Assembly (NCBI GenBank): GCA_951406725.2
Contig: OX597827.1
Coordinates: 24,552,001 to 24,616,000 of the forward strand
Length of the DNA stretch: 64,000 nucleotides
Source: Octopus vulgaris
Taxonomy: Eukaryota
Direction of reading: 5' to 3'
This document shows positions 23,472 to 23,951 of the stretch, piece after piece. The notes below the pieces were generated by a model that was not told the origin of the DNA, did not search any database, and saw nothing but the letters and a program-made list of their open reading frames with translations. The position numbers and the translations under genes were made by a program. Position 1 is the first letter of the stretch. Each line of letters begins with the position of its first letter.

Positions 23472-23951
23472 AAACCATATTTTATCCCAGTAAATGACCA
23501 CAGCATTTTGTCTTGGCTACACGCGGGTGGAAGGGGGCTGGTGACACAAACTTTCATTCACACTTTGAATTTCGTGGTCCTGGTCATGCTTTGGCTCGCT
23601 CTGACACTGAGTTGAGATAATGCCTTCTAGTATCTCAAAATTTAATATACAATTATTCATAATTGTAGTATCCTGCGCCGATGAGAAAAGAAGTTTGGGT
23701 AAGGTAGAATTTTCTAATTCTTATGCTTTCCTAAAACTTGATTTCGAAACGTACGTCCGTAGGTAACTTAAAATTGTATGATAGATTGCCGTCATTTCAT
23801 TCTTTCTTTCTTACCTGTCTGTGTTTGCCTTTCAAGTGCTGTGTTTTTACTGAGATCCCCCTTTTAGTAGAAGGAATAGCTATATCTCTTTGACTGCTAT
23901 TTCTAAATTCGGTGTGTTGGTGAGGCAATTCGTTGCTAAACCCTTAATTAC
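23472..23951 (+). mobile_element. 480-bp non-coding hammerhead-bearing insertion in (TA)n (PLE/retrozyme-like monomer)
   Basis: Unique island between TA tracts containing the hammerhead at 23672-23763; shares CACGC.GGTGGAA(A)GGGG and CTGCTATTTCTAA with the 562-bp tandem unit. Confidence 0.7.
23672..23763 (+). ncRNA. Type I hammerhead ribozyme motif with long stem II
   Basis: CCTGCG-CCGATGA-[GAAAAGAAGTTT..AAAACTTGATTTC]-GAAAC-GTAC-GTC-CGTAGG; 6-bp stem I, palindromic GTAC loop 3, GUC site; U4C variant in the core. Confidence 0.78.

Follow-up and report, generated by a model that had tools for sequence, protein, structure and literature searches.

A 5'-truncated hammerhead repeat with a C4 core in an (AT)n tract of octopus DNA, likely a non-LTR retrozyme

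The 480-nt insert described here lies in a 64,000-nt stretch of octopus DNA (hereafter the window). It carries the anatomy of a hammerhead, belongs to a multi-copy family, is truncated, is flanked by (AT)n and shares a 3' hairpin with a neighbouring element, and the C at position 4 of its hammerhead core recurs in a large share of its family. We consider it fairly probable (roughly 0.7) that it is a 5'-truncated copy of a non-coding hammerhead repeat, likely a non-LTR retrozyme, that was likely inserted into (AT)n by the reverse transcriptase (RT) and endonuclease of a Penelope-like element (PLE). Far more tentative, and on balance doubtful, is the further proposal that a lineage with the C4 core was amplified to about half of its family in one animal species and that the tail hairpin, which two sister families of long divergence retain precisely at the Penelope-type tail, is, in place of the ribozyme, the cis signal at which a Penelope-like RT starts.

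Setting and anatomy of the 480-nt insert

Repeats, many of them microsatellites, abound in the eukaryotic DNA of the window. Fragments of LINE-type RTs and of Tc1/mariner transposases occur in it as well, and its short interspersed repeats are similar to octopus ones. Fragments of mariner-type and Tc1-type transposases (HTH_48, PAX, DDE_3) lie at 9908-10477 and 12743-13798, and a minisatellite-like unit of 66-67 bp recurs in dispersed short arrays (980-1220, 11586-11709 and 21214-21427). Between 21551 and 26292 extends an (AT)n-rich stretch with three consecutive inserts, namely an RT fragment, the 480-nt insert and a neighbour built of 562-bp units. The features of the two hammerhead elements are the following.

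23114..23472, no strand: (AT)n tract upstream of the 480-nt insert, its likely target
23473..23953, + strand: the 480-nt insert, a 5'-truncated copy of a multi-copy non-coding repeat, sitting in an (AT)n tract
23520..23537, + strand: upstream shared motif CACGC.GGTGGAA.GGGG, predicted to pair with 23800-23824
23672..23677, + strand: 5' arm of stem I, CCTGCG, helix probability 0.98
23678..23684, + strand: core CCGATGA, read as C3-C4-G5-A6-U7-G8-A9, with C4 (23679) in place of the canonical U4
23685..23745, + strand: stem II, 61 nt, with a 4-bp base, a 2x2 internal loop, a long extension and a variable distal part
23746..23749, + strand: GAAA
23750..23757, + strand: C-GTAC-G-TC
23758..23763, + strand: 3' arm of stem I, CGTAGG
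23758..23767, + strand: the same arm with TAAC behind it; the 562-bp neighbour has TAAC at the equivalent place
23872..23906, + strand: hairpin whose 3' arm is the shared motif CTGCTATTTCTAA
23919..23942, + strand: 3'-terminal hairpin built of 3 bp, a 2x2 loop and 5 bp, which the neighbour has as well; reverse transcription may be initiated here
23953..24127, no strand: (AT)n tract separating the insert from the neighbour
24128..25291, + strand: the 562-bp neighbour, likely a sister element, two identical units followed by 40 bp that repeat the beginning of the unit

The ends of the 480-nt insert are uncertain by 1-3 nt owing to TA microhomology. The RT fragment upstream of it (21846-23113) is a 5'-truncated frame of 390 aa without a stop (RVT_1, E 3.3e-14) that ends in an (AAAATC)n-like tail and has its (AT)n stretch and orientation in common with both hammerhead elements; given this tail, it is presumably a LINE. 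The occurrence of this fragment and both hammerhead elements in one (AT)n stretch suggests an insertion hot spot.

With a GC content of 38% (that is, below 50%) and a longest wholly internal ATG reading frame of 48 aa, the insert is non-coding. It is predicted to fold as a type I hammerhead, and the ribozyme that the initial annotation had described is indeed there, the letters and a descriptor scan agreeing on it. All letters of the core are canonical except C4. Stem III consists of 2 bp closed by a palindromic GUAC loop and is followed by the GUC triplet, with the predicted cut after 23757. One pair of stem I is G.U (23675/23760), and the TAAC behind this stem is a candidate loop-1 contact. 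Our models favour a long stem II made up of a 4-bp helix, a 2x2 internal loop and an extension. A relaxed descriptor returned five matches on the two strands of the window, only one of which (23672-23763) combines a stem I of at least 6 bp with a stem II base of at least 4 bp, and the descriptor with those stem lengths was satisfied by 1 in 20,000 letter-shuffles of the 480 nt. The folding z-score is -2.76 for the 106-nt motif and for the whole insert alike.

Standard Rfam scans miss both hammerhead families: the insert and the canonical-core neighbour gave 0 matches at the gathering threshold, and among the 29 matches at E values up to 10 none is a hammerhead. A pattern search for the motif in viral contigs likewise gave 0 matches, and three pattern matches in metagenome contigs were dismissed as chance, being GC-rich sequence that lacks the 5' half of the motif. 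Elsewhere in the window, a weak descriptor match at 60561 (+), with a CTGAAGA core, a 4-bp stem I and a 3-bp stem II base, is probably due to chance. A palindromic element of ~270 bp (18584-18860), with arms that are 85% alike, has a minimal hammerhead-like motif at 18764 (+) and a mirrored copy of it on the opposite arm; a second partial copy lies at 37922-38062, and the element resembles the inverted pseudo-LTR (pLTR) pairs described for PLEs.

A multi-copy family and its C4 core

The insert is part of a dispersed multi-copy family, since the stretch or part of it is found in 20 of 24 listed public runs (11 studies, five organism labels). Four runs were analysed, at the level of contigs: X1 and X4 (organism A, separate studies), X6 (organism B) and X14 (organism D), and no listed run holding the stretch is recorded as RNA. 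The contigs mapped to the stretch in these four number 1645, 73, 981 and 248 and represent many alleles. Contig depth does not equal copy number, and depth peaks along the insert were not used to rank its parts. Family sequence runs on before 23484 (in X4 and X6) and after 23949, and because contigs continue beyond both ends, the insert must be 5'-truncated and the family unit longer. The term monomer, by which the insert had been introduced, accordingly gives way to 5'-truncated partial monomer. No second copy of the 480-nt element occurs in the window, where it stands as a single truncated unit between (AT)n tracts and not as head-to-tail units with at least two hammerheads, as defined for retrozymes. 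A tandem arrangement of the family is hinted at by one joint that goes back from 23952 to 23528, in one X1 contig. One X4 contig begins at 23721 after an (AT)n run (TATATAT) and represents a second truncated insertion. We rejected X4 as evidence for transcription, as its RNA nature is only guessed and a genomic-looking (AT)n junction is present. The loose ends of the family bear a weak likeness to the matching places in the neighbour (a score as high arises in 91 and 68 of 2000 shuffles, for windows chosen by eye).

Whether U4C is the family consensus had been put forward as a check, and the result is intermediate: judged by the four runs, C4 is not private to this copy, but neither is it the consensus. 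The share of T at 23679 in summed contig depth is 0.50 in X1, 0.53 in X4, 0.82 in X6 and 0.87 in X14. Position 4 is hence non-U in ~50% and 47% in two runs of one species and in ~18% and ~14% in two other organisms, where the shares rest on contig depth, X1 may be the source sample itself and the non-T remainder is taken as mainly C. T at 23679 and A at 23682 (the free position 7) are among the alleles listed for other family members. In X4, the contigs with T4 sum to 86.0 (70.8 + 10.1 + 5.1), and a further 11.2 brings the sum to 97.2, the exact depth for A at 23675; non-T is spread over at least three contig sets (11.2, 46.4 and a remainder of 19.1). The 11.2-deep contig joins A at 23675 to C4, and the 46.4-deep contig joins non-T4 to stem II alleles. 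These depth sums indicate that C4 is likely a subfamily trait residing on several haplotypes (at least three in X4). It is likely the derived allele, because U4 is the prevailing letter in two other organisms as well as in the sister family; for the same reason, and since U4 is canonical, CpG decay was judged less likely as the source of the U/C difference.

The alleles also bear on the structure. Variant places number 61, and the following figures cover the 40 that are listed. All 6 of 6 listed alleles in stem I and the paired proximal part of stem II keep or restore pairing, which is kept for the stem I alleles 23672 C>T and 23675 G>A; position 7 (23682) varies freely, as expected. From 23744 to 23803, no allele occurs among the 40 of 61 places listed. 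The allele pairs 23687/23743 and 23695/23735 would be compensatory and are not phased on one contig. In X1, the 23695 allele (24272/122081) and its partner at 23735 (35933/168608) have similar shares; in X4, the former appears without the latter, and one non-T4 contig has the stem II allele at 23687 while a contig of near-equal depth has the partner at 23743. Distal stem II alleles break pairs (23703, 23726, 23728) and include indels. Over the whole copy, structure is not significantly favoured, with 20 of 40 alleles in unpaired places (p = 0.065), 11 that keep a pair, 2 that restore one and 7 that break one.

Can a C4 hammerhead cleave? Only a little short of even odds, in our estimate, is the scenario that the C4 ribozyme is dead or nearly dead and is amplified nonetheless, either because cleavage is dispensable or because it is cut in trans by U4 relatives with an equal stem I. 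This scenario concerns the ribozyme only and is a sub-case of the preferred explanation, a truncated retrozyme copy. U4C is already known as a natural variant in two viroid-type RNAs, and the accounts of its activity differ (here and below, papers are cited for the portions of their text that were available): it considerably lowers in vitro activity, yet allows viroid infectivity, according to one (PMC3088659), and the other reports CCGA in four variants and cites peach latent mosaic viroid as self-cleaving unaffected by U4C (PMC9608096), which argues against a dead ribozyme. In our models, a predicted off-fold gains a C-G pair through C4, and its gap to the catalytic fold is 3.9 kcal/mol, compared with 3.2 for U4 and 1.1 for U4 with the alleles at 23675 and 23682. 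That hammerhead core mutants did not block insertion in vitro (PMC11167929) also favours dispensable cleavage. On the other hand, the stem II alleles of X4 at 23687 (on a non-T4 contig) and at 23743, being of near-equal depth, hint at continued selection on the fold. The lone 480-nt copy likely cleaves weakly or not at all, and a U4/C4 dimer within the family appears possible, as its stem I arms match. An amplified genomic U4C lineage was not found in the literature covered, which lacks one key work on PLE hammerhead variants.

The sister element, the terminal hairpin and mobilisation

That the insert and the 562-bp neighbour are sister families, as the initial annotation proposed, is borne out by colinear anchors, a shared 3' hairpin and insertion ends that lie 11 nt (480-nt insert) and 12 nt (neighbour) past this hairpin; judged from the sequences, the relationship is likely. 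The order of the anchors is common to both, with spacings of 158/155, 148/142 and 42/46 nt. Their best local alignment is in the 3' half and, motifs included, scores 60, the maximum of 1000 shuffles being 49. Between the motifs, the intervals align no better than shuffled sequence does (827, 472 and 617 of 1000 shuffles score as high), and the motif-free 3' end aligns weakly (22 of 1000). The statement that the two elements are otherwise dissimilar is therefore correct for the sequence between the anchors, but not for anchor spacing and 3' hairpins, which are shared.

The units of the neighbour (24128-24689 and 24690-25251) have canonical CUGAUGA cores at 24491 and 25053. They are 100% identical, and the neighbour is for this reason likely a recent insertion. 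A 562-bp unit folds strongly (z -6.16), with a predicted lowest-energy fold that would sequester the hammerhead by a gap of 7 kcal/mol. A second hammerhead-like string in the neighbour (24423-24441, CGATGAG...GCCGAAA), without recognisable stems I and III and missed by the descriptor, is possibly chance or a relic.

Each of the two flanking motifs said to be shared occurs exactly three times in the window (in the insert and in the two 562-bp units), with 0 expected from 100 shuffles, a null that is generous because the motifs were chosen from the same sequences. It is plausible that they serve RT recognition, as had been suggested. However, both are mostly base-paired in the predicted folds, the upstream one is not constant among family members (23531 A>G, 23533 G>A), and the first 12 letters of the downstream one recur in a different repeat, whose copies at 29394 (-) and 51991 (+) yielded no hammerhead in the scan. 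This other repeat family has the 12 letters CTGCTATTTCTA followed by GCA. A better candidate is the terminal hairpin, which the initial annotation did not name. The alternative role as a promoter finds no support, the only Pol III box matches having one mismatch and lying at non-shared places; a sigma-70 promoter scan was set aside as irrelevant to a eukaryote.

Both elements end in two hairpins, the first having the downstream motif as its 3' arm. In the second, the terminal one, 8 of 8 pairs are kept through two two-sided changes and one one-sided change between the two sequences compared. The neighbour begins 2 nt before its own terminal hairpin, and given this start and ends 11-12 nt past the hairpin, its 40-bp overhang amounts to the terminal hairpin with its flanks. 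This repeat after the second unit is a Penelope-type tail: it measures 40 bp (up to 43 with microhomology) after two whole units, and the 480-nt copy ends at the homologous point. The 5' truncation and the (TA)n target of Penelope-mobilised elements are found here too. Tails of 30-40 bp are described for PLEs, as are truncation at the 5' end and (TA)n targets (PMC8557442), and in an anole element two RT start sites in a stem-loop bracket the tail (PMC11167929). From the PLE-type tail and these RT starts we infer that the terminal hairpin could be the initiation signal.

The preferred explanation would operate as follows. Tandem copies would be transcribed, and their hammerheads would pair through the palindromic loop 3, so that family members in tandem could cleave after GUC as homodimers. 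Monomers would be cut out and may circularise, as RNA monomers do in the retrozymes of coral, mussel and axolotl (PMC7229834). A Penelope-like enzyme would nick the (AT)n tract, and reverse transcription would begin at the equivalent place in both families, 11-12 nt beyond the terminal hairpin; on the 480-nt copy it would have stopped early, leaving the 5' truncation. C4 would have spread with a successful source lineage, because, as we propose, the change is partly tolerated or insertion needs no cleavage. A scan of 150 of the window's 198 open frames gave no GIY-YIG match, and no Penelope-like reading frame was found nearby.

It is conceivable, though rather improbable, that the insert is instead a pLTR or the 3' end of an autonomous PLE that was cut short on insertion. 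Its 5' truncation, (TA)n target and tail are PLE traits (PMC8557442), type I hammerheads occur in pLTRs, in part with a helix III that is small and palindromic (PMC4209133), and retrozymes have been argued to be pLTR derivatives (bioRxiv 10.64898/2026.07.22.740005). Yet the sister unit is a pure non-coding tandem, the family continuations past both ends of the insert weakly resemble sister sequence at matching places, and the loose ends listed (133 further ones lie outside the listing) include no junction to a reading frame. An RT and GIY-YIG frame between pLTRs, which defines an autonomous PLE, was not found among the 150 frames scanned.

It is less probable still, and by a wide measure, that the two families cooperate, as the initial annotation envisaged, in a read-through transcript in which identical loop-3 palindromes allow cleavage as a heterodimer. 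The 8-nt palindromic stem III region is indeed identical in the two elements, their cores lie 813 nt apart in equal orientation, and the neighbour core could form 5 of the first 6 stem I pairs on the insert's site. However, a double hammerhead also swaps stem I, and since the cross-family arms mismatch, at pair 2 of both cross stems, such cleavage is unlikely; in the models, the homodimers gain -11.7 and -10.9 kcal/mol, the heterodimers -0.9 and +0.3. Moreover, the neighbour has an identical partner of its own 562 nt away, a transcript spanning the pair would have to be supposed, and the adjacency of the two families is explained by their shared (AT)n target, which holds the LINE fragment as well. 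It is hardly credible that an ordinary AT-rich repeat came to fold as this hammerhead by chance: the absence of an Rfam match, the non-canonical core and the non-significant covariation over the whole copy would fit, but hardly any shuffle satisfies the descriptor, other family members have the canonical core, and so does the neighbour at the same position.

Likeness to retrozymes, Penelope-like elements and viroid hammerheads

The retrozyme class and its link to PLEs are already published, and since the class is known, the element itself comes as no surprise. The family is not described in the available portions of the literature on octopus with hammerhead, retrozyme or Penelope, a coverage that lacks one key work on PLE variants. 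Mobilisation of non-LTR retrozymes by PLEs has been argued from co-occurrence and phylogeny (PMC7229834; bioRxiv 10.64898/2026.07.22.740005). A tail hairpin kept by compensatory change between sister families is a concrete initiation signal to mutate, and the coexistence of natural U4 and C4 subfamilies gives a handle on whether cleavage matters for spread. If the hairpin is indeed the cis signal, the family would make it possible to test directly by what means animal retrozymes move and whether they need to cleave.

Like the insert, metazoan non-LTR retrozymes have a type I hammerhead with a short palindromic helix III (PMC7229834; bioRxiv 10.64898/2026.07.22.740005), the motif having U4 in other family members here. 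They are also, as here, non-coding, below 50% GC and present in many copies, with solo copies described, and the neighbour is a head-to-tail dimer. The sister monomer of 562 bp exceeds the 150-450 bp of PMC7229834 and falls within the 51-972 bp of bioRxiv 10.64898/2026.07.22.740005, by whose rule the 480-nt copy is not 'active' because it has one hammerhead only. The 61-nt stem II, the C4 core and the conserved tail hairpin are absent from the available descriptions of metazoan retrozymes that we compared.

With the pLTR hammerheads of PLEs (PMC4209133, PMC11167929, PMC8557442) the insert and its sister have in common 5' truncation, partial tandems, the 30-40-bp tail, the (TA)n target, the palindromic loop 3, an often longer helix II and high variability within a genome. 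Unlike in PLE pLTRs, no RT-GIY-YIG reading frame is attached to the insert. With 6 bp in helix I and 4 bp at the base of helix II, it conforms to the canonical sizes of PMC4209133 and not to the minimal type, in which helix III is absent or minimal and helix I has 4-5 bp; here helix III has 2 bp and a tetraloop. The core variants reported for PLE hammerheads in the available text are U3-A8, as opposed to C4 here. The identical change of the core from CUGA to CCGA is found in peach latent mosaic viroid and in CtaHVd-LR1 (PMC3088659, PMC9608096). In contrast to these viroid-type hammerheads, C4 occurs here in a type I motif that is predicted to need a dimer, and whereas viroid-type U4C occurs rarely, as a variant within an RNA replicon, the change is seen here in a large share of a genomic repeat family.
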